Position numbers and translations under genes: made by a program
Source: Nitrosopumilaceae archaeon
Lineage (GTDB): Archaea > Thermoproteota > Nitrososphaeria > Nitrososphaerales > Nitrosopumilaceae
Direction of reading: 5' to 3'
NCBI GenBank assembly: GCA_965214835.1
Contig: CBDCCK010000002.1
Location: forward strand, 2,912,001 to 2,976,000
DNA length: 64,000 nt
The notes under the pieces: model-generated
The model's database searches: none
The model's input: only the letters and a program-made list of their open reading frames with translations
What the model was told of the DNA's origin: nothing
Part shown: in pieces, positions 7,329 through 64,000 of the stretch
How the letters are laid out: the number at the start of each line of letters is the position of its first letter
Position numbering within the stretch: the first letter of the stretch is position 1

Positions 7329-8620
7329 TGTATAGTCCGAAAAGTAGTTCACCCCTTCTCCGAGTGTGTAAAGTCGGTCAGGACCAGATGTGCCAGCTTG
7401 ACCCACACTGGAAGCACGGGTGTGTGGGTCTGGCGACGAAAGCTCCGTAAATACGTGAGCCCTGGGCACCCAAACGGCATGAAGCTAGAGAAAAGCCAGG
7501 TGGAATGGATAGTGAGGGAAAAGAAAAAGGGCGAGCTTACCAACGCCCGGACAGCCGGAACCATGGACGTGACGGTACGGTGGGTCCAGAAGCTGTGGGC
7601 CAGGCACAAAGGCCGCCCTACGGCAAGTGAGATATCGCATCCTGCGCCAATGGGAAGGCCCCAGAACGGCCTGCCAGGGGGGGGTTGTCGCCTAATTCGC
7701 CAGAATCCCTGAAAACCATTGAGTTGCCATATGGATCAGGCGTGTAAAAGGGCGGAAATTCAGAAAAACATGCAGGTTGAGTCAAATAAGTAGAATTAGG
7801 CGACAACCCCCCCCTGCCAGGACGCAGAGAGCACTCTGCAGTCATGTCTGCCAGACATGCAGAACACATGGGGGCTGCCGGACTGCAGCGGCGCATAGCA
7901 GAGCAGACCGGAATCCATATCACGCATGGCATCATACACAAGATACTGAGGGACGAGGAGATGGCAGAGGTACAGCCCAACAAGGGTACGAGGCACAGGT
8001 GGATCCGCTACGAGCGCGAGTACTCAAACTCGCTGTGGCATACGGACTGGAAGCAGATCCACGGCGGAATGCACGACGGCAGATGGTTCCTGTGCTACGA
8101 GGATGATGCCTCCAGGTTTGTGACCGGATACGGCATCTTTGATAACGCCACGGCCAGGAACGCCCTGGCCGTGCTTGAGACGGCAATGGAAAGGCACGGT
8201 AAGCCGGCCTCAATCATGACAGACCACGGCAGCCAGTTCTATGCCAACGAGGAGACGGCAAAAAAGAGGGGGGAAGGCGAGTTTGAGAAGGATCTGGTGA
8301 ATCTGGGAATACGGCAGATCCTGGCAGGCGTGGGACGTCCACAGACCAACGGAAAGGTCGAGCGCCTCCACGGGGAGATCCAGCGCAAGCTGCACGAGTT
8401 CGAGGAGATCATGATGAGAAAGAGCGACCCGATAGACCTGTTCATGCAGTGGTACAATCATGACAGGCCCCACAGGTCGCTGGACTGGGACAACCAGGAG
8501 ACGCCCGCACAGGCATTTCTCAGAAAGATGCCCAAGGAGGGGGAAACCGTTATTGACGGGCAGACAGGGGAGGAGTATGATGTCAGATAAGGGGGGGCGA
8601 ACTACTTTCTGGATCCCACA
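7329..8620 (+). mobile_element. IS481-family element, transposase interrupted by a MITE
   Basis: TGT...ACA termini, TIR TCC(G/A)GAAA(A)GTAGTTC and a 17-bp flanking direct repeat. Transposase 7479-8590 (LWHTDWK, EDDASR, TDHGSQF, PQTNGKVER) is split at 7679-7812. Confidence 0.88.
7679..7812. mobile_element. 134-bp MITE with GGGGTTGTCGCCTAATTC TIR
   Basis: Perfect TIR and 9-bp TSD CCTGCCAGG (7670-7678, 7813-7821). Removing it restores NGLPGRREHSAVMSAR in frame. Confidence 0.9.
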
Positions 8621-16841: not shown

Positions 16842-17000
16842 TGAACACGCGATAAAAACACCCCCACCGTAGCTGGGGTGATGGATCAACCCCTTGCGCG
16901 GCAAGCGCTCAGCGCATTCCGGGCCGAATAGGGATATCCGATCTGCTGTGTTCCTGTGCTTGGTGCACCGATGGATGACCGCAGCTTCTGATCCGTCGAA
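16842..17000 (+). ncRNA. IS110 left end / bridge-RNA-like copy A (no recombinase)
   Basis: Homologous to the reverse complement of 39625-39781; both loops present with distinct target-loop sequences. Confidence 0.72.
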
Positions 17001-17002
17001 GC

Positions 17003-17210
17003 GGGGTTGCCGCCTAATTCATCAGAATTCCTGAAAACCAGGATATGTCGTCTGGGTTAGACGTGCAAAAGACTTTATGCGTAATCGACCTGAATGAGAT
17101 GAATTTGTTCGTAATGGTCCTAATCTGAACCGATTATGCAAAGTCTAAAGGGAGTGGAGGCTCAAAAGCGTGCAGATTGAGTCAGGCAAAGGGAGTTAGG
17201 CGACAATCCC
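17003..17210. mobile_element. MITE of the GGGGTTG(C/T)CGCCTAA family with a nested smaller MITE
   Basis: Ends and interior resemble 7679-7812. Nested 17070-17146 has AGACTTTATGCGTAATCG / CGATTATGCAAAGTCT ends and AAA flanks. Confidence 0.8.
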
Positions 17211-17940
17211 GCCGGCACGTGCAGGACGGCCGTGTACAACGGGTTCAGGGCAGCTCGGTGTTCACGTAGCCCGACGCCGAACAGATTAGTGAGAATCGGA
17301 TCGGATCAAAATTCCCGAGCATGGATGAGACGCCATTTTCGGTGGCAGGCAGCAGATCCTCGCATTCCCGGGTTGCAGTCGGCGACGGCTGCGTGCACTT
17401 TACGGCGGCAGGGACGTGTGCGGGCACAGTACCCGACGAGTTCTATCCGTGCTTCCTAGTGCCGTTGACCTGCGACGGGTACAAGCCGTGCCGTAGGTAT
17501 GAGAACATACAAGGGTGCTGGATGCACTTGCTACGCGAGGCTGGGATGCACGTATCCAAAGGGCGCGCCGAAAGGTCGCGCTGCAAGCAACTGCAGCTCA
17601 TACTCCACGAGGCCAGGCACATGTCCCCTGATCACTACTGCGCCGGGATTATACCGCGCGTAAAGGCAATAGCGGCGTGGCACACCAGGGGGCACAGTTA
17701 CGACGGCAGGCTTGCGGCTGCTGCCCCGCACATGATCACCGTTGCCAGGCATCCGGGCAAGGAGTCCACCAGCAACAGGGCAGGGGGCGCTGTGCAGGAT
17801 AGTCATGCAGGAGGCATACGGTTCTGGCTTTGCACCCCCACCGGCACGAGGATGCTCAGAACAATAATGACGTGCATCTGGACATGGCGCATGCGCGGGC
17901 CGGATGTGCCGGCCGCGCTAGTCGAGGCGCTTACGGCATC
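17211..17940 (+). pseudogene. Degraded IS66-like transposase
   Basis: MDETPF, CDGY, QGCWMHLLRE, STSNRA, TIMTCIWTWRMRG. Confidence 0.75.
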
Positions 17941-38146: not shown

Positions 38147-38514
38147 GCGTTTTTGAGCAAAACAATAGATGATAAAGTTTTCCGCGCTGTAACATAGATG
38201 AATAACCGTGCCTGAACGCGTAAAAACAGCCAGTTTTTCGTACCTAAAATCGGGGTTATGCATCCATGGTAAAACGCCCGCCAGTAACATGGCAACGTTC
38301 CTTTCTTCTTCTGATCCGTGCCTAGTCGGCCGGGCCGTGCTTTATAGCTAACGCTAGCAATACGCACGAGCCAGTCCTGTCGCACCTGCCAGGGTGCGGG
38401 CGGATCATTGGGTGGGTGGGTGGGGGATGGAAGGTGGTAATCCTATGCCGTTCCCGCCAGTTCTGTCACGGCAGGATGTATGTTTTGCTTGCGGCATGTC
38501 ATCGAGTGGTAATC

Positions 38515-39592
38515 CTATGCCGTTCCCGCCAGTTCTGTCACCCTCTTGATCTTCTTGTCGTACAGGGCAGCATTGCGCGATGAATACGCAGTCTTTGTCG
38601 TCAGCATGTGCCAGATTATCCTGAGCATCTTGTTTGCAACATGCGTTATCGCTATGACGTGGTTGTTGCCGTTCCTTTTGCGGACCCTCTCGTAGAACTC
38701 CCTCATCCTGTCGTCGTGCTGTACGGCGACGTTGGCTATCTGGATCATCAGCCAGTTGATCCTGCGGTTTGCATCCTTTTTCATGTGGCCGTGGTACTCG
38801 CGATCCCCCGACTGGTACACCCGGGGACACATGCCGGCCCAGGACACAAGCTGGTTCGGCGATGGAAACCTGGTTATGTCACCGATCTCTGCTATCAGCA
38901 GCATTGCTGCAAAGGTGTCTATTCCCGTCATGCTCAACAGCAGCTTGGCATCCTCGTTCGATCCTGCCTGTCTTCCTATGTCCTCCCCTGCTTGGTCTAT
39001 CTCCTCTGTGACGTGTACAATCCTCCTAGTGCAGCTTGCCAGTATCCTGTCATCGTTTGGCATGTTCAGCCTGGTATCGGAGATCTTCCGTATGGCCTTC
39101 TTGGAGTACATCGTGGATGCATCTATGGCTATATCGTACTTGTCAAGCCAAGCTGTGCAGCCCGTTTATGACTGCGGTCCTCTCCTGTACCATCCGTATC
39201 CTGTACCTCATCAGCTCCCTGACATCCCTCAGCTCTGCTGATGCCACGTAGCATCGTGGTATCATTCCGGCCCTGAGCGTGTCGGCTATCTTCCTTGCGT
39301 CTATCGGGTCGGTCTTTGCGCTGGTCTCTGATACTATCTTCATCTTGAGGGTGTTTGCAAGCAGTATGGGGATATGCTGATCCTCAAACGCCCTGAACGT
39401 CTTTAGCCACATGTTGCCCGTTGACTCGCATGCGGCCTGGCACTTTTTGTACTCTTTTTTCAGTCGTGCAGCAAGCTTTGATGCCTCCTTGTACGTGTTG
39501 TTATACGAGCCCTCCTCTAGCACGTGTCCCTTGGCGTCGATGACGCACACTGCGCATTTTCTCTTTCCAATGTCTATTCCTATGCTTCTCAA
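38515..39592 (-). pseudogene. IS110 DEDD recombinase with one +1 frameshift near 39149
   Basis: GIDIG, CESTG, KTDPIDA, IAEIGDITRF, WAGMCPRVYQSG (catalytic Ser). CTG CAC AGC TTG G CTT GAC AAG shows one extra base. Confidence 0.9.
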
Positions 39593-39624
39593 TCCTTTTC
39601 TTTCACCTCCTTTTGGATATGGTT

Positions 39625-39779
39625 TGACAGATCAGAAGCTGCATTCATCCATCAGTGCGCGTAGCACAGGAACACAGCAGCTCGGATATCCCCATTCAAC
39701 AGGTAGTGCGCGAAGCACATGCATAACGAGGGGTTGATCCATCACCCTGGCTACGGCGGGGGCGTTTTTATCATGTGTT
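39625..39779 (-). ncRNA. Bridge-RNA-like ncRNA of IS110 copy B
   Basis: Two internal loops, each capped by a GTGC..GCAC hairpin; four loop segments match both target flanks and both element ends. Confidence 0.82.
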
Positions 39780-40064
39780 CAACAGGCTACGCGCTGTAAA
39801 AACCTGCAAAAATCTCACCATATTTACGATCTTTTTACTCATCCGTAGATCCATTACGGGGACTTGATCGCCAAATGCAGGGAAAATGACCAAGGCGGTA
39901 CGTGGTGGGCCGATTTGCCCGAGGAGACGCAGGAAGGCATGGAGTGTGAATAGTCCAGCCTCAATAGTTCTGATTGACCCAGTAGCCAGACTCGGCCCGG
40001 ATCGGGGGCTTGCTCGTACTCTTACAGATGCCCTGATGATGCGGGCAGGCATGATGCGTAGTAT

Positions 40065-43480: not shown

Positions 43481-43492
43481 ATGGATGTTATG

Positions 43493-43994
43493 GGAGTTGT
43501 TGTGTGATTCGATTTATCCTGTATAATTTGCTCATTTTCCAAGTCATTACATCTAGATCACGTCCAATGTGGGGATGGCGTGTGGAAATTTCAAGCATTT
43601 TGGCGAATTACGCAGCATCTATGTTAAAAACACCCGTCGTAGAAACGACGATGTTCCTAGTTTCTTCTGATCCACGCCTACTTGATCGTGGCCCACTTTA
43701 GCTGACGCTGGTTGCACGATGCAGTCGCGCTTGCCTTCTCCCGGTGCGGTCATGTCATATCCTCCCAGATCATTGGGTGGGTGGTGGGGCAGGAGGTGAG
43801 TCACCGCAGGCGGTTTCTTTCCTCCTGGTCTTGACGGATCAGAAGCTGCAGTCATCTATCAGTGCGCGAAGCACAGGAACACAGCAGCTCGGATATCCCC
43901 ATTCAACCTCGAGTGCGCTGAGCACATGTCGCGTAAGGGGTTGATCCATCACCCTGACTACGGCGGTGGTGTTTTTATCACGTGCTCAACCCCC
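43493..43994. mobile_element. Degenerate GGGGTTG-TIR MITE split by mini-IS110 copy C
   Basis: Flanking ATGTTATG (43485-43492, 43995-44002). Reconstituted end TTTTGGCGAATTACGCAGCAACCCC resembles TTCTGGCGAATTAGGCGACAACCCC of the 7679 MITE. Confidence 0.7.
43616..43988 (-). mobile_element. Non-autonomous mini-IS110 (copy C): both ends plus bridge-like RNA, no recombinase
   Basis: 43616-43785 is homologous to 38261-38420 and 43830-43988 to 39625-39781; CA core at both junctions. Confidence 0.85.
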
Positions 43995-44215
43995 ATGTTA
44001 TGATGCCAATCTTGCGCATCCGGCATTTGTAGATGATCCTGCACACATAAAATTGAGCTTGCCGCGCGTCTTCTCAAAAGTAACCCAAGCCAACGCATTC
44101 TGACCAAGGCAGATCAGTTAGGCACAAGTCTGCATGCAGATATAGCCTGCATTCCTGACAGGTGGATGGGACGTGGCCTCGTACGCTAAAATAGATCTGC
44201 GTCACATCCCAAACA

Positions 44216-44635: not shown

Positions 44636-44751
44636 AGCTTGGATGCGCGCCGGGGCGTGAAAAAATGAAATCGTCGTACATTGTCGTGCATAGCGTCCGC
44701 TGGGTCGTGATTTAAAATGAATCATCGCGCATAGTCTCTATGTAAATGGCT

Positions 44752-47748
<2,997 letters not shown>

Positions 47749-47863
47749 AAATTCAGCCACATATTACACGACTATGCACGACGATCATCGGGTGCAGTCC
47801 AGGGAGGACTGCCCCCTACATCCTTCATACATCACTTTCATGATGCATTGCATCTGATGGTTT

Positions 47864-47896
47864 TTTGTGAAGACTTGTGCACCCGGCACAATTTCT

Positions 47897-47900
<4 letters not shown>
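47864..47900 (-). other. 3' arm of the pre-16S processing stem (pairs with ~49404-49438)
   Basis: GTGAAGAC..GTGCA.CCG...CAATT is complementary to AATTG...CGGATGCAC...GTCTTCAC with bulges. Confidence 0.65.
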
Positions 47901-49368
<1,468 letters not shown>

Positions 49369-55017: not shown

Positions 55018-58000
55018 CTAGTCTGATACGTGGTATGTCATGGACATCATCCTGTCTATGATCTCCTGCGCCCTCTGCCGCTCTGCGGCCATCGAGTCTG
55101 CCAGCCGTTCTAGCCGGACCTCCTCTGGCAGGACCGCCGGATGCTCGTATGGAATCACGGATCCGGGCTCCCGTATCAGCTGCGACGCATCAAAGACCAG
55201 CACGGCCCTGTCCTGCTCGGCCTGCACGAGTGTCGCAAAGTTGGAGTTCATCCTGTTCATCACCTTCCACGGCACGTCCTGGTGACGCTCAAAGGCGTCG
55301 GGGACGGTCCTGTACCAGGTTCCGTGCGAGTTGCGGGCCCACTCGTTGCCCCACTGGTCGGCCCACAGGTCCGCCAGCTTGTCGGTGCGCTCCAGCTGTA
55401 TGACGGCCGCCTCGTACTGCTGCCCGCGCTTGTATATTCCTGCCGTGTCCAGCGGCACCGGGTTCATAGAGTCTCCCTGTACCAGCAGCCCGTCGTTCAT
55501 ATAGTTCTGCGCGCTCCAGCGCTGCACGTCCATCACATATATGACAAAGGGCTCGTGGTACATCTGCTCCCGGAACAGCAGTCCCTCAATTGAGAGCTCG
55601 ACGCATCTTGTGGGATCGGCGGGGGACATGCACCCGACAAGCTCCACGCCGAGGGCGGCCTCGCCTATGACGTCGTTTGGATCCGTGTATACGGCATCCA
55701 GTATCTCGTATGTAGAGTCTGCAGTATAGTCGCGCCCGAGCTCGACGGTCAGGACGGCCTCGGCGTCGCCTATGGGGGAGCCGACCCCGGGCACCCCGAA
55801 GCCTATCTGGAACTGCTGGACTCCTGCAGCAGAGTGCGCCCTGAGCGTAAAGTCGTGTTTCGTGTCTGTCTGTATTGACTCGCGCCTATAGTCTACGTGA
55901 TAGTCAAGCACGTCGCGGCAGATGCCGTCCATGGAGTATCCGCAGCTTACCATCTGGCCGCCCGTCTGCGGCGATACGCCAAAGGTCGGGGCCGTCTGCC
56001 ACTCGTCATCATTGCCGCCGCCCCTCGAGTCGGGCTTGAATCCGTCGTCCCAGATGCCCAGGCGCATCCAGCCCGAGTCGTCTATCCCCCACACGGCATA
56101 CATGGACCAGTCCAGGTCGCCTGCCGCGTTCAGCTCAATGTCCCCGATGGCCCCGACATACCGGGATGCGGCCTCGGGGAGGGCGGCCCTTATCTCCCCG
56201 GGTTCGGCGTCCCACCCGGCCTCCTCCAGTGCCAGTCCCAGCACCCATATGGTATCGTACATGCCATAGGTATACACGGCAGGCGCGGTGCCAAACTCGT
56301 CGTCGATGATATCCGTCAGGTACCTGTACGCGGGGCTGTCCGAGTCCTCTGCAAAGACGGACGCCTGAAAGTTTGCATCCCTCAGGAACTCGAATACCCC
56401 GGGATCATCGACCAGTGCATTGTCAAGAACCGAGGCATCCGAGCCCATCCACTGTACGGTGCCCAGCACCGGATGGCCGGCCGCCTTGGCCACGAACCGG
56501 GACATCTCCTCCTGCCCTATGAACAGGACGGAGACCCGGTCTGCGCCGGCCTCCTGCACGTGTCCGGAGACTGCCGTCTCCAGCCGTGCGGCCAGGGCCT
56601 CAAAGGCGCCGTCCAGGTCAGGATCGTCCGGATCATAGCTGCCCAGCTCGTCTGCCGTACCGCCGAGCGCCTCAAATTCGGTCACAGCCGAGTTTCTGAT
56701 GCCCTCGCCCCAGATGTCGCCCCTCCACACCACAACCATGACGTCCTTTTCGTACTCGTCCCCGAGCAGGCCGGCAATCACGGATCCCTGCTGCGAGTCA
56801 TCCGGCGCCAGCCTGAAGATGTTGTCGCCCTCGATTGCAAGCGAGGGCGCAGTCGAGCAGCAGCTGACAAGTATCATGCCGTTGGAATCGGCATAATTTC
56901 TTACGGCGTCCAGCTCGGAGCTGCGGACGGGTCCGGAGACCAGCGTTATGTTCGCAGAGTCAAGCGACCGGATCAGGGTCTGCACGTCGGCAGCCTCCGT
57001 ATCATTGATGACCAGCTGGTCGGCGCGCCAGACTGCACCGTTCCTCTCAAGGTATGCGTTGAGGTCCTCGACGGCGGCATTGGCCGCAAATGTGTGGTGC
57101 TCTCCCAGATGGCTGCCCAGTCCACCCGTCTGCGGAATCAGGGCGCCCATCGTTATGTACTCCGCCGGTACAGTCACGGTCCTCGTTGCAATTTTCGTGT
57201 TGCCGGCGTCATCGGTTGCCGTATAGGTCACCGTGTAGGTTCCGGGCCTGTCCGTATCCACCAGTGTATCGTCGACAGAGACGGCGTCTGCATAGTTCGG
57301 ATCGTTGTCGGTGGACGTGGCGCCCGCATCGATGTATGTCGAGCCCAGCGGTATGGTGACCGGATCCTCGCCTGATACCATGATTTCAGGCGGCGTGGTG
57401 TCGCGCACCTGAACGATCCTGGTCGCAGTGACGGGGTTGTTGTTGGGGTCAGTCGCCATAAAGTTGACGATATAGTCACCGCGCACGTTGACGTCTACCG
57501 CAGAGGCGTTGATGTCGACCGTCGAGCCGCCGCTTATGGTGGCGCCCGGATCTACATACGGGTCGCCGAGCTCGTGGGGCCACGGGTTGGTGCCGTTGAG
57601 CATTATCGCATAGAGGGTCACTGCTATCTCAAAGGTCTGTGAATCGGTGCCGCCGCGGCCGTCGTCTACCGTTATTGTAACATCGTGGGTCTGTCCGATA
57701 TCGTCCTGTACGGGCGTCCAGACGATGCTGCCGTTCGAGGTATCAAATACGGCAGCTGCCGGCAGCGTGCCGCGCGATATCGAGTACGCGTGCGTGTCGG
57801 TAGGATCTGCGTCGGTTACCTTGGGCATTATGCTCAGCTGGGCTCCGGGCGTTGCGTTCCGGTCGCCTATGGTTGCCAATACGGGGGCGTTGTTGTCGCG
57901 CGTGACCGTTATTGTTATCGTACCCTGCGCCGTGTTGGTGCCGTCAGATACCGTATATCCGAACGTGTCGGTGCCCGTATAGTCTTGGTCCGGGGTGTAT

Positions 58001-61000
58001 GTTATTGTATTGTCATCATGGGTGGCAGACCCGTTGGGCGGGTTTTCGATTGCCGATATCACCGGGGTGTCCGATGTGTCTGGATCCGATATGGAAGGCG
58101 TTATTGTTATGGGTGTGTCCTCTGCGGTGGTTGCCGTCTCGGAAGGCGCCACCGGTGGGTCGTTGGACGGCTCTCCCAAGTTCAGCTCTACTATCTGGAG
58201 GCCGGCATCGCCAAAGGCGGCCACCGCTGCGTAGATGTCCTGCCCTATCATGAAGATGTCCACGCCGCGTGGGCTGTTAAGCTCTAGGGAGCCCATATCC
58301 CCCAGATTCCCAGCGGCGGTGAGATTGGCAGGATCGGTAATGTCTACTAGCTGGATGCCGTTGTCAGAGAGGGATGTAACCACCGCGTAGGTGTTGCTGC
58401 CGAATGTAAAGACATCCACGTTGCGTGGGCTTCCAAGTCGCAAGGCGCCATTATCTCCCAGTCTGCCGGCGGCAGTCGGACTGGCAGGGTTGGAAACATC
58501 CACAATCTGGATGCCGTTGTCTACTTCGGCGACCACTACCGCATAGGTACTCTGTCCGATCGTGATAACGGCCACGTCAAGGGCGCCGCCAAGCCGCAAG
58601 AATCCCCCATCCCCTAGGCTGCCGGCCTCGATGGGATTGACAGGATCGGTGACGTCTACGATCTGGAGGCCGTTGTCAAGCACGGAGGCGACTGCGGCGT
58701 AGGTTCTGCCGTCTATCGTAAAGACGTCTACTCCAGAGGCGCCATCAAGTCGCGTGGAGTTCGTATCTTCTAGGCTGCCGGCGGCAGTCGGACTGGCAGG
58801 ATCGGTGACGTTTACAATCTGGATGCCGTCATAGTAGGAGCTGACTGCGGCGTAGGTGCTGCCGTCTATCGTAAAGACGGCCACGCCGAAGGCGCCGTCA
58901 AGCTTCTTAGAGGGTGTATCTGACACCCGACCTGTGGCCTGCAAACTGGCAGGATCGGTAACGTTTACAATCTGGATGCCGTCATCATTGTGGGAGGCCA
59001 CTACGGCGTAGATGCTGCCGTCTATCGTAAAGACGGCCACGCCGCGTGGGCTAGCAAGTCGCAAGTCGTTATTATCTTCCAGGCTGCCGGCGGCAGTCGG
59101 ACTGGCAGGATCGGTGACGTTGATAATCTGGATGCCATCATCATATTCGGAGGCGACGGCCGCGTAGGTGCTGCCGTCTATCGTAAAGGTGTCCACGCCG
59201 AAGGCGCCGTCAAGCAGCAATTGCTGGCTGTCTCCTATATTCCCGACCGGGGTCAGCGTGAGTGTTGGTGGAGCATCACCCACGACTATGTCAAAGGATT
59301 CAGAGTCGGTGCCGCCCCGGCCGTCGTCTACCGTTATTGTGACCTCGTGGGTCTGCCCGGCATCTGCCTGCACGGGCGTCCAGACGATGCTGCCGTTCGA
59401 GGTATCAAATACGGCAGCTGCCGGCAGCGTGCCGCGCGATATCGAGTACGTGTGCGTGTCGGTCGTGTCGGCGTCGGTTACCGTGGGTGTTATGCTCAGC
59501 TGGACTCCCGGCGTTGCGGTCTGGTCGCCTATTGTTCCTAGGACGGGGGCGCTGTTGGGAGCCAAGCTTGCACCCTCGGCAAGCTTTACTGTCTGGAGGC
59601 CCTCCGTGTCTGTTGCCACCACGGCGTACACGTCCCCGCCGATCTCAAACAGGGCCAGATCCCGTGCATTTTCAAGGGAGAGCGACAGGTCGTCCCCAAT
59701 GGATCCGGCCGCTGCGGGATTGTCGGGGTTGGTTATATCCACAATCTGGAGGCCGTCGTCGCTCTCGGAGGCCACTGCTGCGTAGACGGTCTGGCCCACC
59801 CAGAACATCTCCACGCCGCTGGCCCCGGCAAGCAGCCTGTCGCCGCCATCTACAAGCTTTCCGGCAGGCGACGGATTGTCGGGATCGGTGACGTTTATGA
59901 TCTGGAGGCCGTTTTCAAGATGTGACGCCACTGCCACGTATGCAAAGCCTCCCACCTCGAAGGTGTCCACGGCGCGGATTCCCCTGAGCAGCATGTCAGT
60001 GTTGTCTGCCAGCCGTCCCGTCTCTGCAGGACTGGACGGGTTGCTGACGTCTATGATCTCAAGGCCGTCATCTCCCCACGAGGCCACTACTGCATATGTG
60101 GAGCCGCCCCTCTTGAAGGTGTCCACCGAGGAGGTATCAGCAAGCAGCCTGGAGCCGTTATCTGCCAGCTCCCCTGGTGCCGTCAGACTGCTGGGATCGG
60201 TGACATGTACAAGCTGGAGGCCGCCGTCGTGCTGTGAGGTGACTGCCGCGTAGGTGTTGGTGCCTATCGTAAAGGTGGTCACCGCGTTGGCGCCTTCAAG
60301 CAGCCGGTTGCCGCCGTCTGCCACCCGTCCGACCGAGGCAGGGTTGTCCGGATCGGTGACGTCGATTATCTCGACGCCGTCATCACCATTGGAGGCCACC
60401 ACGGCGTAGGTCTTGCCGCCCGTCTCAAAGGTGTCCACGGCGCGCGCGCCATCAAGCCGCAGGGTGATATCGTCGTCAAGCTGTCCGGCCGCTGCAGGGG
60501 CTGCCGGATCTGTTATGTCCATGATCTGGATGCCGTCCTCGCTGCCGGAGACGGCGACCGCATAGGTGGAGCCGCCTATCTCAAAGGTGTCCACGCCGCG
60601 GGACAGATCAAGCAGCAGACTAGCAGTGTCTGGAATACTCTTGGAGGGAATGGGGCTGTCTGGAGTAGCCGTCGTGATCGGGTTGTCGGCTGCAGATTCT
60701 ATCTGGTTCCCGAACAGATCCGATACAGCGCCTGCTGCGATGTCAAGCTGCGGGGTTGCCATCCGGGCTATGTCGTCCAGCTGGGACTGGGTAAGCGTAA
60801 GGTATATCGTGTCAGAGTCAGGTACAGTATCATCGAATGTCGCCCCAGTCAGGGCCACCTCGTTTGTTTCGCCCGCGTCGCTGACGTACAGTTTTGACAG
60901 GTCGGTCTCCGAGACGTCTATTGTCTCGCTGAAGGTTACAACCACGGCACCGGTGTGCCTGTCCATGGTAGCAGATGCGAACTCGGGTTCTGTATCGTCC

Positions 61001-64000
61001 TCGTCAAGACCCACCACCTGGAGGCCCTCGGTATCGGAGGCCACCACGGCGTAGGTGCCCCTGCCGCTTGTGAACACGGCCAGATCCCGGGCCTTATCAA
61101 GGGAGAGCGACGGGCCGTCCCCCAGGAATCCGGCCGCCGCCGGGTTGTCGGGATCGGCTATATCCACAACCTGGACGCCGTCGTCGCCCTCGGATGCCAC
61201 TGCGGCGTAGACTCCAGTATAGGTCCGGAACACCTCCACCCCACTGGCCCCGGCAAGCCGCAGGTCGCCGCCGTCTGCAAGCTTGCCTGCCGCCGCCGGA
61301 TTGCCGGGATCGGAGACGTCGATTATCTGCAGTCCGTGGTCGAGATGCGATGTGGCCACCGCGTATGTGGAGCCGCCCGTCTCGAAGGTGTCCAAGTCGC
61401 GGATTCCGCGGAGCAGCAGGTCGTTGTCGTCTGCCAGGTTGCCGGCGGCTGCCGGGTTGTCGGGATCGGAGACGTCTATGATCTGGAGGCCGGGCTGGCC
61501 CCATGAGGCCACGACTGCATATGTGGAGCCGCCCGTCTCAAAGACGGCCACGGCGCTGGTGTCGACAAGCAGCCGACTGCTATCGTCTGCCAGATTGCCG
61601 GCGGCTGCCGGACTGGCAGGATTGGTGACGTCTATGATCTGGAGGCCGTCGTCGTGCTCTGAGGTGACTGCGGCGTAGGTGTTGGTGTCTATCGTAAAGG
61701 TGGTCACGCCGTTGGCGCCGTCAAGCAGGCGGGAGCCGTCGTCTTTCACCCGTCCAACCGAGGCAGGGTTGTCCGGATCGCTGACGTCGATTATCTCGAC
61801 GCCGTCATCACCATTGGAGGCCACCACGGCGTAGGTCTTGCCGCCCGTCTCAAAGGTGTCCACGGCGCGCGCGCCCCAGAGCAGCAGCGTGCTGTCATCG
61901 TCCTGCAGGCTTCCGGTGGCTGCAGGAGCTGCAGGATTTGTTACATCCACGATCTGGATACCGTCCACGTCGGAGGAGACGGCCACCGCATATATCGAGC
62001 CGCCTATCTCGAAGGTGTCCACACCGCGGGACTCGGCAAGCAGCAGGTTCGCATCGTCGGGCAGTCTTCCGGAGGGGATCGGGTTGGCCGGGCTGGCCGT
62101 CGTGATCGGGTTGTCGGCTGTAGATTCTATCTGGTTCCCGAACAGATCCGATACAGCGCCTGCTGCGATGTCAAGCTGCGGGGTTGCCATCCGGGCTATG
62201 TCGTCCAGCTGGGACTGGGTAAGCGTAATGGATGTAGTGTCAGAGTCCGGTACCGTGTCATCGAATGCAGCCCCAGTCAGGGCCACCTCGTTTGTTTCGC
62301 CCGCGTCGCTGACGTACAGTTTTGACAGGTCGGTCTCCGAGACGTCTATCGTCTCGTCGAAGGTGATCATCATGGCGCCGGTGCTGCCGTCCAGTGTGGC
62401 CGATGCGAACTCGGGTTCTGTATCGTCCTCGTCAAGACCCACCACCTGGAGGCCCTCCATATGGGAGGCCACCACGGCGTAGGTGCCCTTGCCGCTTGTG
62501 AACACGGCTAGATCCCGCGCATCGTCAAGGGAGAGCGACGGGCCATCCCCTAGGAATCCGGCTGCCGCCGGGTTGTCGGGATCGGTTATGCCCACAACCT
62601 GGACGCCGTCGTCGTCCTCGGATGCCACTGCGGCGTAGACTCCAGTATAGGTCCGGAACACCTCCACCCCGCTGGCCCCCCCAAGCAGCAGGTCGCCGCC
62701 GTCTGCAAGCTTGCCTGCCGCCGCCGGATTGCCGGGATCGGAGACGTCGATTATCTGCAGTCCGTGGTCAAGATGCGATGTGGCCACCGCGTATGTGGAG
62801 CCGCCCGTCTCGAAGGTGTCCAAGTCGCGGATTCCGCGGAGCAGCAGGTCGTTGTCGTCTGCCAGGTTGCCGGCGGCTGCCGGGTTGTCGGGATCGGAGA
62901 CGTCTATGATCTGGAGGCCGGGCTCGCCCCATGAGGCCACGGCTGCATATGTGGAGCCGCCCGTCTCAAAGACGGCCACGGCGCTGGTGTCGACAAGCAG
63001 CCGACTGCTATCGTCTGCCAGATTGCCGGCGGCTGCCGGACTGGCAGGATTGGTGACGTCTATGATCTGGAGGCCGTCGTCGTGCTGGGAGGTGACTGCG
63101 GCGTAGGTGTTGGTGTCTATCGTAAAGGTGGTCACGCCGTTGGCGCCGTCAAGCAAGCGGGAGCCGTCGTCTTTCACCCGTCCAACCGAGGCAGGGTTGT
63201 CCGGATCGCTGACGTCGATTATCTCGACGCCGTCATCACCATTGGAGGCCACCACGGCGTAGGTCTTGCCGCCCGTCTCAAAGGTGTCCACGGCGCGCGC
63301 GCCCCAGAGCAGCAGCGTGTCATCGTCGTCCTGCAGGCTTCCGGCGGCTGCAGGAGCTGCAGGATTTGTTACATCCACGATCTGGATGCCGTCCACGTCG
63401 GAGGAGACGGCCACCGCATATATCGAGCCGCCTATCTCGAAGGTGTCCACGCCACCGGACTCGGCAAGCAGCAGGTTCGCATCGTCGGGCAGGTTTCCGG
63501 AGGGGATCGGGCTGTCCGGAGTGGCCGTCGTGATCGGGTTGTCGGCTGCAGATTTCATCTGGTTCCCGAACAGATCCGATACAGCGCCTGCTGCGATGTC
63601 AAGCTGCGGGGTTGCCATCCGGGCTATGTCATTCAGCTGGGACTGGGTAAGCGTAAGCGATATCGTGTCAGAGTCCGGTACCGTGTCATCGAATGTAGCC
63701 CCAGTCAGGGCCACCTCGTTTGTTTCGCCCGCGTCGCTGACGTACAGTTTTGACAGGTCGGTCTCCGAGACGTCTATTGTCTCGTCGAAGGTGATCATCA
63801 TGGTGTCGGTGTTACCGTCCAATGCGGCCGATGCGAACTCGGGCCCTGTGGTGTCGATATCGCCAAGCTTTACCACCTGGAGGCCCTCTGTGTATGAGCC
63901 CACCACGGCGTGCGGACTCTCGCCGCTTGTGAACACGGTCACGACCCGTGCCTCTGCAAGCGAGAGCTGTGAGCTGTCCCCCAAGGATGTCACGGCTGAC
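55018..64000 (-). CDS. Giant modular surface protein (>2990 aa, 5' end beyond window)
   Basis: LVIVD-like beta-propeller repeats (YAVVAS..DDG.QIIDVTDP), 476-aa modules, cadherin/Ig-like domains (VDDGRGGTDS), DUF5011-type Ig (YVDPGAT), LivJ-like substrate-binding domain (STAPSL...IFRLAPDD) and a C-terminal domain. Frame is open to 64000. Confidence 0.92.
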   Translation of the reverse strand, partial: SAVTSLGDSSQLSLAEARVVTVFTSGESPHAVVGSYTEGLQVVKLGDIDTTGPEFASAALDGNTDTMMITFDETIDVSETDLSKLYVSDAGETNEVALTGATFDDTVPDSDTISLTLTQSQLNDIARMATPQLDIAAGAVSDLFGNQMKSAADNPITTATPDSPIPSGNLPDDANLLLAESGGVDTFEIGGSIYAVAVSSDVDGIQIVDVTNPAAPAAAGSLQDDDDTLLLWGARAVDTFETGGKTYAVVASNGDDGVEIIDVSDPDNPASVGRVKDDGSRLLDGANGVTTFTIDTNTYAAVTSQHDDGLQIIDVTNPASPAAAGNLADDSSRLLVDTSAVAVFETGGSTYAAVASWGEPGLQIIDVSDPDNPAAAGNLADDNDLLLRGIRDLDTFETGGSTYAVATSHLDHGLQIIDVSDPGNPAAAGKLADGGDLLLGGASGVEVFRTYTGVYAAVASEDDDGVQVVGITDPDNPAAAGFLGDGPSLSLDDARDLAVFTSGKGTYAVVASHMEGLQVVGLDEDDTEPEFASATLDGSTGAMMITFDETIDVSETDLSKLYVSDAGETNEVALTGAAFDDTVPDSDTTSITLTQSQLDDIARMATPQLDIAAGAVSDLFGNQIESTADNPITTASPANPIPSGRLPDDANLLLAESRGVDTFEIGGSIYAVAVSSDVDGIQIVDVTNPAAPAATGSLQDDDSTLLLWGARAVDTFETGGKTYAVVASNGDDGVEIIDVSDPDNPASVGRVKDDGSRLLDGANGVTTFTIDTNTYAAVTSEHDDGLQIIDVTNPASPAAAGNLADDSSRLLVDTSAVAVFETGGSTYAVVASWGQPGLQIIDVSDPDNPAAAGNLADDNDLLLRGIRDLDTFETGGSTYAVATSHLDHGLQIIDVSDPGNPAAAGKLADGGDLRLAGASGVEVFRTYTGVYAAVASEGDDGVQVVDIADPDNPAAAGFLGDGPSLSLDKARDLAVFTSGRGTYAVVASDTEGLQVVGLDEDDTEPEFASATMDRHTGAVVVTFSETIDVSETDLSKLYVSDAGETNEVALTGATFDDTVPDSDTIYLTLTQSQLDDIARMATPQLDIAAGAVSDLFGNQIESAADNPITTATPDSPIPSKSIPDTASLLLDLSRGVDTFEIGGSTYAVAVSGSEDGIQIMDITDPAAPAAAGQLDDDITLRLDGARAVDTFETGGKTYAVVASNGDDGVEIIDVTDPDNPASVGRVADGGNRLLEGANAVTTFTIGTNTYAAVTSQHDGGLQLVHVTDPSSLTAPGELADNGSRLLADTSSVDTFKRGGSTYAVVASWGDDGLEIIDVSNPSSPAETGRLADNTDMLLRGIRAVDTFEVGGFAYVAVASHLENGLQIINVTDPDNPSPAGKLVDGGDRLLAGASGVEMFWVGQTVYAAVASESDDGLQIVDITNPDNPAAAGSIGDDLSLSLENARDLALFEIGGDVYAVVATDTEGLQTVKLAEGASLAPNSAPVLGTIGDQTATPGVQLSITPTVTDADTTDTHTYSISRGTLPAAAVFDTSNGSIVWTPVQADAGQTHEVTITVDDGRGGTDSESFDIVVGDAPPTLTLTPVGNIGDSQQLLLDGAFGVDTFTIDGSTYAAVASEYDDGIQIINVTDPASPTAAGSLEDNNDLRLASPRGVAVFTIDGSIYAVVASHNDDGIQIVNVTDPASLQATGRVSDTPSKKLDGAFGVAVFTIDGSTYAAVSSYYDGIQIVNVTDPASPTAAGSLEDTNSTRLDGASGVDVFTIDGRTYAAVASVLDNGLQIVDVTDPVNPIEAGSLGDGGFLRLGGALDVAVITIGQSTYAVVVAEVDNGIQIVDVSNPASPTAAGRLGDNGALRLGSPRNVDVFTFGSNTYAVVTSLSDNGIQLVDITDPANLTAAGNLGDMGSLELNSPRGVDIFMIGQDIYAAVAAFGDAGLQIVELNLGEPSNDPPVAPSETATTAEDTPITITPSISDPDTSDTPVISAIENPPNGSATHDDNTITYTPDQDYTGTDTFGYTVSDGTNTAQGTITITVTRDNNAPVLATIGDRNATPGAQLSIMPKVTDADPTDTHAYSISRGTLPAAAVFDTSNGSIVWTPVQDDIGQTHDVTITVDDGRGGTDSQTFEIAVTLYAIMLNGTNPWPHELGDPYVDPGATISGGSTVDINASAVDVNVRGDYIVNFMATDPNNNPVTATRIVQVRDTTPPEIMVSGEDPVTIPLGSTYIDAGATSTDNDPNYADAVSVDDTLVDTDRPGTYTVTYTATDDAGNTKIATRTVTVPAEYITMGALIPQTGGLGSHLGEHHTFAANAAVEDLNAYLERNGAVWRADQLVINDTEAADVQTLIRSLDSANITLVSGPVRSSELDAVRNYADSNGMILVSCCSTAPSLAIEGDNIFRLAPDDSQQGSVIAGLLGDEYEKDVMVVVWRGDIWGEGIRNSAVTEFEALGGTADELGSYDPDDPDLDGAFEALAARLETAVSGHVQEAGADRVSVLFIGQEEMSRFVAKAAGHPVLGTVQWMGSDASVLDNALVDDPGVFEFLRDANFQASVFAEDSDSPAYRYLTDIIDDEFGTAPAVYTYGMYDTIWVLGLALEEAGWDAEPGEIRAALPEAASRYVGAIGDIELNAAGDLDWSMYAVWGIDDSGWMRLGIWDDGFKPDSRGGGNDDEWQTAPTFGVSPQTGGQMVSCGYSMDGICRDVLDYHVDYRRESIQTDTKHDFTLRAHSAAGVQQFQIGFGVPGVGSPIGDAEAVLTVELGRDYTADSTYEILDAVYTDPNDVIGEAALGVELVGCMSPADPTRCVELSIEGLLFREQMYHEPFVIYVMDVQRWSAQNYMNDGLLVQGDSMNPVPLDTAGIYKRGQQYEAAVIQLERTDKLADLWADQWGNEWARNSHGTWYRTVPDAFERHQDVPWKVMNRMNSNFATLVQAEQDRAVLVFDASQLIREPGSVIPYEHPAVLPEEVRLERLADSMAAERQRAQEIIDRMMSMTYHVSD
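60500..63845 (-). repeat. 1428-bp tandem modules: two near-identical copies plus the start of a third
   Basis: GAACTCGGG (PEFASA) at 63835, 62407 and 60979, exactly 1428 bp apart. Confidence 0.93.

Follow-up and report, generated by a model that had tools for sequence, protein, structure and literature searches.

Systems guided by bridge or seek RNAs are usually pictured as one enzyme and its own RNA carried together in a single compact element. According to the parts of the IS621 study used here, this IS110 element encodes a DEDD recombinase and, upstream of its gene, a non-coding bridge RNA that recognises the target through one internal loop and the joined ends of the element through another; within each loop both DNA strands about a common core dinucleotide are read (Durrant et al. 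2024, PMC11208160). IS1111-type elements and their seekRNAs are described, in the corresponding parts of a second study, as having subterminal inverted repeats of about 11–13 bp and a non-coding region that usually follows the recombinase gene but in a few elements lies upstream; their guides have been reprogrammed in nature, and a laboratory mini-IS with cargo was moved when transposase and seekRNA were supplied (Siddiquee et al. 2024, PMC11187229). Two further cases concern elements in which one component is missing. MITEPpu9 of Pseudomonas putida is a natural, recombinase-less, multi-copy element whose flanks resemble the left and right ends of IS110-family members and which carries a small-RNA gene, and it has been proposed, in the portion of the report drawn on here, to move with a transposase acting in trans (PMC12288879). 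Conversely, the relevant part of a recent preprint describes IS110 elements of approximately 800 bp that keep the recombinase and lack the 5′ UTR and hence the RNA region; as the two components are here split across loci, these elements imply that a bridge RNA can act in trans (10.64898/2026.08.14.744561). In the literature searched, supplements aside, these were the only natural cases found that bear on recombinase-less, bridge-RNA-bearing elements, the second as their mirror image, and no description was found of natural minis that keep a two-loop guide with a target of its own.

The window analysed in this study, that is the entire stretch of 64,000 nucleotides, belongs to an archaeal genome of 3.2 Mb with 52.6% G+C (G000 below). 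It contains a 373-bp element, hereafter the focal mini, which a first-pass annotation had described as recombinase-free and as retaining both ends of a nearby full-length element, copy B. This description was borne out, as 43826–43990 shares 86.8% identity with the bridge-RNA end of copy B (39620–39783), 43615–43680 is 74.6% identical to its other end (38260–38324) over about 65 nt, and no conserved ORF is present. The element is read here in the sense of the minus strand, as is the recombinase gene of the full-length copies, so that 43988 marks the left end (LE) and 43616 the right end (RE) (Table 1). Approximately 750 nt separate it from the end of a 23S rRNA gene. On the evidence assembled below the focal mini is a recombinase-less, internally deleted and non-autonomous derivative of an archaeal IS110/IS1111-family lineage, which was probably placed in the TIR of a MITE by the recombinase of a relative under the mini's own guide.

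Table 1. Coordinates, in the window, of the focal mini, its host MITE and related features.
Feature	Position	Strand	Remark
Mini-IS110/IS1111 element without recombinase, 373 bp	43616..43988	-	one TG/CA core copy counted
Right-end terminus (donor half-site)	43616..43624	-	last 7 nt identical to 3′ donor guide
Right subterminal inverted repeat (sTIR)	43622..43634	.	13 nt, 92% complementary; in RNA sense comes after hairpin and includes T-run
Left subterminal inverted repeat	43968..43980	.	A-rich in RNA sense
Bridge/seek RNA	43829..43951	-	closing helix P1 and two stem-internal loop-hairpin arms
5′ target guide, 10 nt with core	43927..43936	-	complementary to top strand, core and right flank
3′ target guide, 7 nt with core	43904..43910	-	same sense as left flank and core
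5′ donor guide	43877..43883	-	complementary to LE positions 2–8; two rU-dG wobble positions in the focal mini
3′ donor guide	43853..43859	-	RE terminus match 7/7
Host-MITE target-site duplication, left copy, 7 bp	43485..43491	.	same 7 nt at 43995–44001
Host MITE body (left TIR and interior), diverged member of ~131-bp family	43492..43615	.	mini right flank (RNA sense) homologous to MITE interior beside TIR
Host MITE right TIR, outer tip	43989..43994	.	insertion parts tip from remainder
Host-MITE target-site duplication, right copy	43995..44001	.	
Intact copy of target MITE family	7679..7814	.	TIR at 7796–7810
Left-end fragment of relative with TIR-type target guides	16842..16997	+	ends at position 156, cut by nested MITEs
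Copy B, full-length, class 1 guides	38261..39781	-	recombinase broken into 89-aa and 198-aa ORFs
Archaeal rRNA operon	44751–49368		

When set beside IS621, as characterised in the parts of that study drawn on here, the archaeal lineage is similar in that the RNA lies upstream of the gene, two loops are present, both strands around the core are read and the longer guide stands 5′ in the target loop; it differs in that the order of the segments is reversed, top-strand pairing falling to the 5′ segment and bottom-strand pairing to the 3′ segment, and in its long subterminal inverted repeats (13 nt, 92%), its archaeal host and the existence of a mini without recombinase (PMC11208160). The likeness to IS1111 elements, within the same limits on the source, consists of the 13-nt sTIR and of a top-strand complement 5′ of the bottom-strand match, provided that the top strand of that study is the strand in the element's orientation (PMC11187229). 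Unlike the usual IS1111 arrangement, the archaeal RNA is found upstream and not downstream of the gene, the terminal extensions past the repeats are longer (about 11 and 9 nt versus 7 and 3 nt), and the minis form a natural family whereas those of the IS1111 work are laboratory constructs (PMC11187229). MITEPpu9, by comparison, is bacterial, its small RNA Ssr9 is discussed as a regulator and not as a demonstrated guide, and the part of the report used here describes no separate target specificity for it, whereas the RNA of the archaeal mini is a two-loop guide whose target differs from that of the resident full-length copies (PMC12288879). The IS110 elements of approximately 800 bp represent the mirror case, being a recombinase without RNA as opposed to an RNA without recombinase (10.64898/2026.08.14.744561, in the part consulted).

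A DEDD recombinase (PF01548 with PF02371) is absent from the focal mini and present in full-length relatives in the same genome, and the mini is therefore a derivative and not an autonomous member of the IS110/IS1111 family. Its longest ORF (78 aa, 43619–43855, minus strand) was rejected as a gene, since Pfam gave no match for it and the frame is uninterrupted in just two of the seven complete minis. The two sTIRs of the element (Table 1) have a counterpart in G004 in which the repeat covaries, and the left sTIR region is a possible TATA-like box candidate located about 25 nt upstream of the RNA. With MITEs the element shares small size, absence of coding capacity, multiple copies and derivation from an IS through internal deletion; the terminal inverted repeats and DDE-type target-site duplication of classical MITEs are not present, as the repeats are subterminal and the junctions repeat only the 2-nt core. 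The mini is thus MITE-like by origin and not by mechanism.

The predicted bridge/seek RNA corresponds to LE positions 38–160, and in the full-length relatives it lies upstream of the recombinase ORF. In its fold the closing helix P1 encloses two arms, each composed of a basal stem, a large internal loop and a 4-bp hairpin (MFE −44.9 kcal/mol; z = −2.61 versus shuffles), so that the mini retains the structured non-coding RNA with two internal loops by which IS110/IS1111 elements are recognised. Across 20 sequences from four genomes the predicted pairs were found in 95.2% of 568 cells, compared to 27–53% for slid partners, while four pairs had changed on both sides and the observed covariation score was reached in none of 500 shuffles; given the limited variation, covariation lends the RNA moderate support. 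Mean pairwise identity among seven minis was highest in the stems (92.1%), intermediate in the middle region (84.8%) and lowest in the target loops (68.7%). A covariance model of the RNA identified 24 places in this genome and, within the taxonomic family, was matched in 23 of 101 genomes and 11 of 27 genera, a tally that counts one weak match from an unpublished genome, G090, which was left aside, while no match to an Rfam bridge-RNA family was obtained at the gathering threshold or at E values up to 10.

The second loop of the RNA reads the element's own ends, as the donor loop of IS110/IS1111 elements does: the 3′ segment repeats the terminal 7 nt of the RE, and the 5′ segment has its complement in LE positions 2–8. 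In the focal mini the 5′ donor guide agrees with the left end at five of seven positions, and the remaining two, both changed from A to G, would form rU-dG wobbles. The 3′ donor guide is identical to the RE terminus (7/7) in four lineages that represent three different states, namely the G000 full-length copies, G010, G004 and the focal mini, and in the case of G004 the right end was predicted from the guide before it was looked up and was found to agree. Copy B carries the other donor state in both guide and right end, a difference that had been interpreted as an in-step, compensatory change relative to copy B. Covariation of guide and end is real across lineages, but the difference is an old one between lineages and not a compensatory step, as the mini ends are in the A state whatever the guide: seven minis as tabulated, the RE-only fragment at genome 635704 included, have right ends reading ATAGAT followed by G or A (in an eighth, L002 of G002, the terminus is disrupted), while the donor guide is ATGGATG in four of nine, ATAGATG in two and one of three other variants in the rest. 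A perfect match of donor guide and right end among minis is confined to the focal copy. The RE of the mini as a whole is about 75% identical to that of copy B. The full-length donor guide could conceivably wobble-pair with the mini right end, in which case the mini's own RNA would not strictly be required for its movement.

The loop segments, four per element, were taken by alignment column and the flanks by coordinate for 30 elements from four genomes. In the first loop, the 3′ segment corresponds in sense to the 5 nt preceding the element together with the TG core, and the 5′ segment is the complement of the core and the 8 nt to the right, the target-loop segments thereby being complementary to both target strands around the core dinucleotide, as in IS110/IS1111 elements. 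Over the 30 elements the 3′ guide matched its own flank at a mean of 3.97 of 5 positions, compared to 2.11 in cross comparisons, and the observed sum was reached in none of 20,000 shuffles of the 22 distinct guide/flank pairs; the corresponding values for the 5′ guide were 4.35 of 8 versus 2.45, with the observed sum reached in 33 of 20,000 shuffles (14 pairs). The two target segments of the focal mini lie where the first-pass annotation had placed them and match its flanks at 8/10 and 6/7 positions with the core, the values given there, or at 6/8 and 4/5 without it. When all 30 guide sets were scored on these flanks, the mini's own guides ranked top (10/13), followed by those of two related fragments (9 and 8), and none of the other 27 sets, every full-length element among them, exceeded 6. 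Where the 5′ guide departs from the local flank, it does so at two positions directly adjoining the core.

Joining the read-outs of the two target-loop guides of the mini yields a predicted 15-nt site, of which the genome contains two exact, 15 one-mismatch and 85 two-mismatch occurrences where 0.006, 0.27 and 5.6, respectively, are expected by chance. All 17 of the exact and one-mismatch sites are TIRs of a single abundant MITE family of approximately 131 bp, and the two exact sites represent both TIRs of one MITE copy near genome position 2609185–2609315. These matches support the view that the guides of the focal mini would specify the TIR of another MITE family; the identification of the insertion site as a TIR of that family, and of an intact TIR in a second copy in the window (Table 1), could be confirmed. 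Site-specific insertion into the TIR of another transposon is reportedly also a property of IS4321/IS5075, which are said to be IS1111-family elements that target TIRs of Tn21-family transposons, although these, unlike the archaeal mini, are autonomous and bacterial.

Regarding the origin of this specificity, the 5′ target segment of the mini is identical at 14 of 15 positions to that of a diverged LE fragment at genome position 504220, the scaffold of which agrees with the mini at only 35/49 and 42/59 positions, and at 12 of 15 positions to that of the relative's left-end fragment within the window; no other copy exceeds 10/15. Both fragments adjoin left flanks that resemble the MITE TIR. The earlier proposal that the target loop was reprogrammed from copy B is accordingly wrong in detail, and since the 5′ guide is common to diverged fragments, TIR targeting is either an old lineage trait or the result of a module swap, having reached the mini by descent with loop-focused change or through a short recombination patch. 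None of the 11 full-length copies carries TIR-type guides.

The guides of the remaining minis give a different picture, as in eight of the nine minis the guides carried by the copy do not account best for its site. The mini at 655669, for example, occupies a class 2 target which the class 2 guide matches at 5/5 and its own guide at 2/5 positions, and the site of the mini at 2139577 is matched at 11/13 by class 1 guides and at 8/13 by its own. Self-programming by the guide alone is therefore not the rule in this family, in which borrowing of the RNA of others, or decay after insertion, is common. Class 1 guides point to the ends of a small repeat and class 2 guides to the TIRs of an IS of approximately 1.36 kb (24 one-mismatch sites), which means that the genome holds three guide classes, each aimed at the ends of a different repeated element. 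The notion of a guide library directed against several transposon families finds support when it is applied to the IS family as a whole, with its three classes and three repeated elements.

The focal mini is not a single-copy element. A BLAST search of G000 with the 373 bp, one of the checks that had been recommended, retrieved three further complete copies (genome positions 639989, 2139577 and 3124522), two truncated minis (10108 and 655669) and the RE-only fragment at 635704, and three complete minis were found in G002, a genome of the same genus that is 76% complete. In total, seven complete and two truncated minis with one deletion architecture, eight of them additional to the focal copy, occur at different loci in the two genomes, and all share the internal junction. 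The complete copies are 81.7–90.6% identical in pairwise comparisons, those of G000 and G002 being intermixed, and the nearest relative of the focal copy is 90.6% identical to it. Identities of 82–91% indicate that the family is old, while the presence of one deletion architecture at many loci in two genomes implies that minis were mobilised in trans at some time; judged by these alignments, they represent a single deletion derivative that spread to many loci long ago. Exact searches of JGI metagenome contigs with the 33-nt target-loop module and of metagenome contigs with a 24-nt mini-specific stretch gave no match, and the latter stretch had one match among genome contigs, on a contig whose title names an uncultured Nitrosopumilaceae archaeon. 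Other genera were surveyed as well: among 29 loci around covariance-model matches, five were without a recombinase match (three known minis, G057 and G048) and several retain only an N-terminal piece of the recombinase; by eye, G057, G048 and the N-terminal-only loci have the appearance of decayed or interrupted copies and provided no clear minis.

Signs of recent movement were sought at the focal locus and at its predicted targets. No near-identical sister of the focal mini and no second copy with its target loop was found, and none of the 17 sites with at most one mismatch to the predicted target is occupied in the same genome. In contigs from three public runs, one or both junctions of the filled site are spanned with no differences. 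The empty allele that the first-pass annotation had proposed to look for was encountered neither as a joint skipping the element among those listed in the contigs of four runs nor in four other genomes of the genus, in which no orthologous locus could be aligned and only about 80 nt beside the 23S gene matched. In view of the lack of identical copies and of an empty allele, current mobility is unsupported, and the focal copy appears to be old and probably quiescent now.

As regards an enzyme that might have served the minis, the recombinase ORF is intact in only one of the 11 full-length copies that were examined; this ORF encodes 378 aa (genome 513380–514516) and matches PF01548 (DEDD_Tnp_IS110) with 103.9 bits and PF02371 (Transposase_20) with 85.8 bits, both above the cut-offs. 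In all eight class 1 copies examined the recombinase is broken in the same way, into ORFs of 89 and 198 aa, a break which in the one copy that was aligned is caused by a 1-nt insertion, and no recombinase relatives were confirmed in genome contigs by the related-locus search. Relative to the element with the intact recombinase, the mini scaffold has three differences in 48 positions before the target loop and two in 59 in the donor arm, and its 5′ target loop has six in 15. The genome thus possesses one intact recombinase gene of the same subfamily, the RNA scaffold of which is nearly identical to that of the mini.

The account that we favour starts from an ancestral element which would have lost its recombinase gene through internal deletion, keeping approximately 165 nt of the left end with the bridge (seek) RNA gene, approximately 170 nt of the right end and both half-sites. 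The RNA would fold into the closing helix and two internal-loop arms, with the second loop reading the joined ends of the element itself, and the DEDD recombinase of a full-length relative would bind this RNA and recombine the mini at the TG core within the TIR of a ~131-bp MITE. The anatomy, the fold, the family-wide covariation of guides with flanks and with ends, the spread over many loci and the match of the guides to the MITE TIR are observed features on which this account builds, and it would further entail that the RNA was produced, that the enzyme acted in trans and that the guiding RNA originated in the mini lineage. That the RNA which guided this insertion was the mini's own is, in our estimation, rather more credible than its converse. 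The earlier suggestion of a guide-only, RNA-programmed MITE mobilised in trans stands in so far as the minis are a multi-copy family and the focal copy retains an intact bridge RNA, and loses ground through the eight of nine minis that are not self-guided and the lack of identical copies.

The main competitor, which we judge rather unlikely, is that the focal mini was moved by the RNP of an autonomous relative which targeted TIRs and has since disappeared from this genome, with the mini's RNA gene a passenger or dead and the mini's target loop a product of shared ancestry or of a gene-conversion patch from that relative. The related guides in the fragments at 504220 (14/15) and in the window (12/15), both beside MITE-TIR-like left flanks, are in keeping with such a relative, as are the sites of most other minis, which fit full-length guides better than their own, and the wobble pairing that a full-length donor guide could form with the mini right end. 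However, TIR-type guides occur in none of the 11 full-length copies, among the minis only the focal copy has two loops that both agree with its ends and flanks, and conservation of the stems exceeds that of the rest of the mini; moreover, the inserting donor DNA itself carried the loop, unless the loop changed after insertion, so that the moving DNA would have encoded an RNA that fits the site. A function in the host or for resident elements, such as titration of recombinase or silencing of MITEs by a domesticated small RNA, would accommodate the conservation of the stems above background, the splitting of a MITE TIR by the insertion and the proximity to the 23S rRNA gene, whose end is about 750 nt away, yet it is very improbable, given the dispersed and decaying state of the copies, with their variable loops and indels, the failure to find a conserved orthologous locus in the genus and the retention of both recombination half-sites, which would be superfluous in a pure RNA gene.

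It was also considered whether a full-length TIR-targeting element had inserted at this site and lost its recombinase gene there, leaving a single-locus relic, as the absence of identical minis and the uniqueness of the target loop to this copy might suggest. Against this, the junction and the whole 373-bp architecture are common to eight other copies at unrelated loci in two genomes, and since independent identical deletions at nine loci are very unlikely, an in situ deletion is rejected as barely credible. Our preferred reading, that of a derivative placed in the TIR by the recombinase of a relative under its own guide, could tentatively be extended to a mobile DNA whose only gene is an RNA that chooses the destination, which borrows the recombinase of its relatives, possesses a private donor guide fitting its own end and has been retargeted to the TIR of another transposon family; we regard this extension as doubtful. 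Were it true, one pool of recombinase would serve several independently evolving, guide-carrying parasites, which would disable other transposons by splitting their ends in a form of transposon-on-transposon hyperparasitism.

The lineage described here combines IS110-type with IS1111-type traits, and each of the three guide classes examined targets the ends of another repeated element. In the focal copy the address changes while the RNA scaffold stays compatible with the resident enzyme. It would represent a natural case in which enzyme and RNA are uncoupled, with short circles that consist only of ends and a guide RNA spreading with an address of their own. If confirmed, these minis would offer a natural template for guides supplied in trans together with matched donor ends and a model for competition between transposons; if not, they are still a clean natural illustration of the covariation of guide with target and of guide with donor.

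The mini is a recombinase-less 373-bp IS110/IS1111-family derivative carrying a bridge RNA, and its window copy sits in a terminal inverted repeat (TIR) of the ~131-bp MITE family. Four mini right ends, three in the source genome and one in the same-genus genome G002, adjoin one and the same MITE, whose first 7 nt are missing; these loci stay homologous across the MITE and for ~25 nt past it. The left flanks of these four minis are unrelated and resemble the targets of the class-1 guides. The mini and the truncated MITE appear to have been copied as one unit, possibly through the use of an alternative right boundary.

One left-end fragment in the window, with target guides of the type fitting the MITE TIR, is broken off at position 156 and is followed by a complete MITE, which itself holds a further small inverted-repeat insert; this is a nested transposon-in-transposon structure. 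In two copies of genome G010, loci L003 and L008, the left boundary is shifted 8 nt inward to the second TG of the left end, and the flank at this shifted junction matches the 3' target guide at 5/5 positions. Consequently, the 5' donor guide has no partner in these copies.

Within the window mini, a right-end segment is perfectly complementary over 10 nt to the 3' strand of the closing helix of the RNA, and the same motif was also found in the full-length right ends tabulated. The motif could form a longer closing helix in a transcript spanning the circle junction.

The site predicted by the guides of class 2, another guide class in the genome, has 24 one-mismatch occurrences genome-wide, the majority of which are inverted pairs ~1.36 kb apart; the paired sites are the TIRs of another IS family.

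Coordinates of the features described
Feature	Location	Strand
Mini right ends adjoining the same truncated MITE	genome 640363, 635704, 3124154; G002 locus L007:753	
Left-end fragment with the MITE and insert that follow it	window 16842-17211	
Right-end segment	window 43664-43673	
3' strand of RNA closing helix	window 43836-43845	
Class-2 site inverted pairs (examples)	genome 506940/508303, 1763089/1764452, 3112464/3113827	
Class-1 full-length copy	window 38261-39781	minus
Class-1 full-length copies	genome 677614, 1098259, 1835891, 1942412, 2128807, 2178170, 2580234	
Very long open frame	window 55018-63999	minus

The open frame listed last spans at least 2991 aa and continues past the window end.

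In other genera, RNA-model matches at L044 (G057), L051 (G048), L042 (G095) and L050 (G100) have no adjoining recombinase similarity or only an N-terminal stub, and may represent independent recombinase-less derivatives or decay products.

Concerning the recombinase of class 1, the gene is divided identically into ORFs of 89 and 198 aa in all eight full-length copies examined, and alignment of one copy identified a 1-nt insertion as the cause. Despite this split, the copies are numerous and their 198-aa C-terminal ORFs retain 95-100% identity to one another. Either the class-1 copies spread after the frameshift using the enzyme of another copy, or the frameshift is read through.
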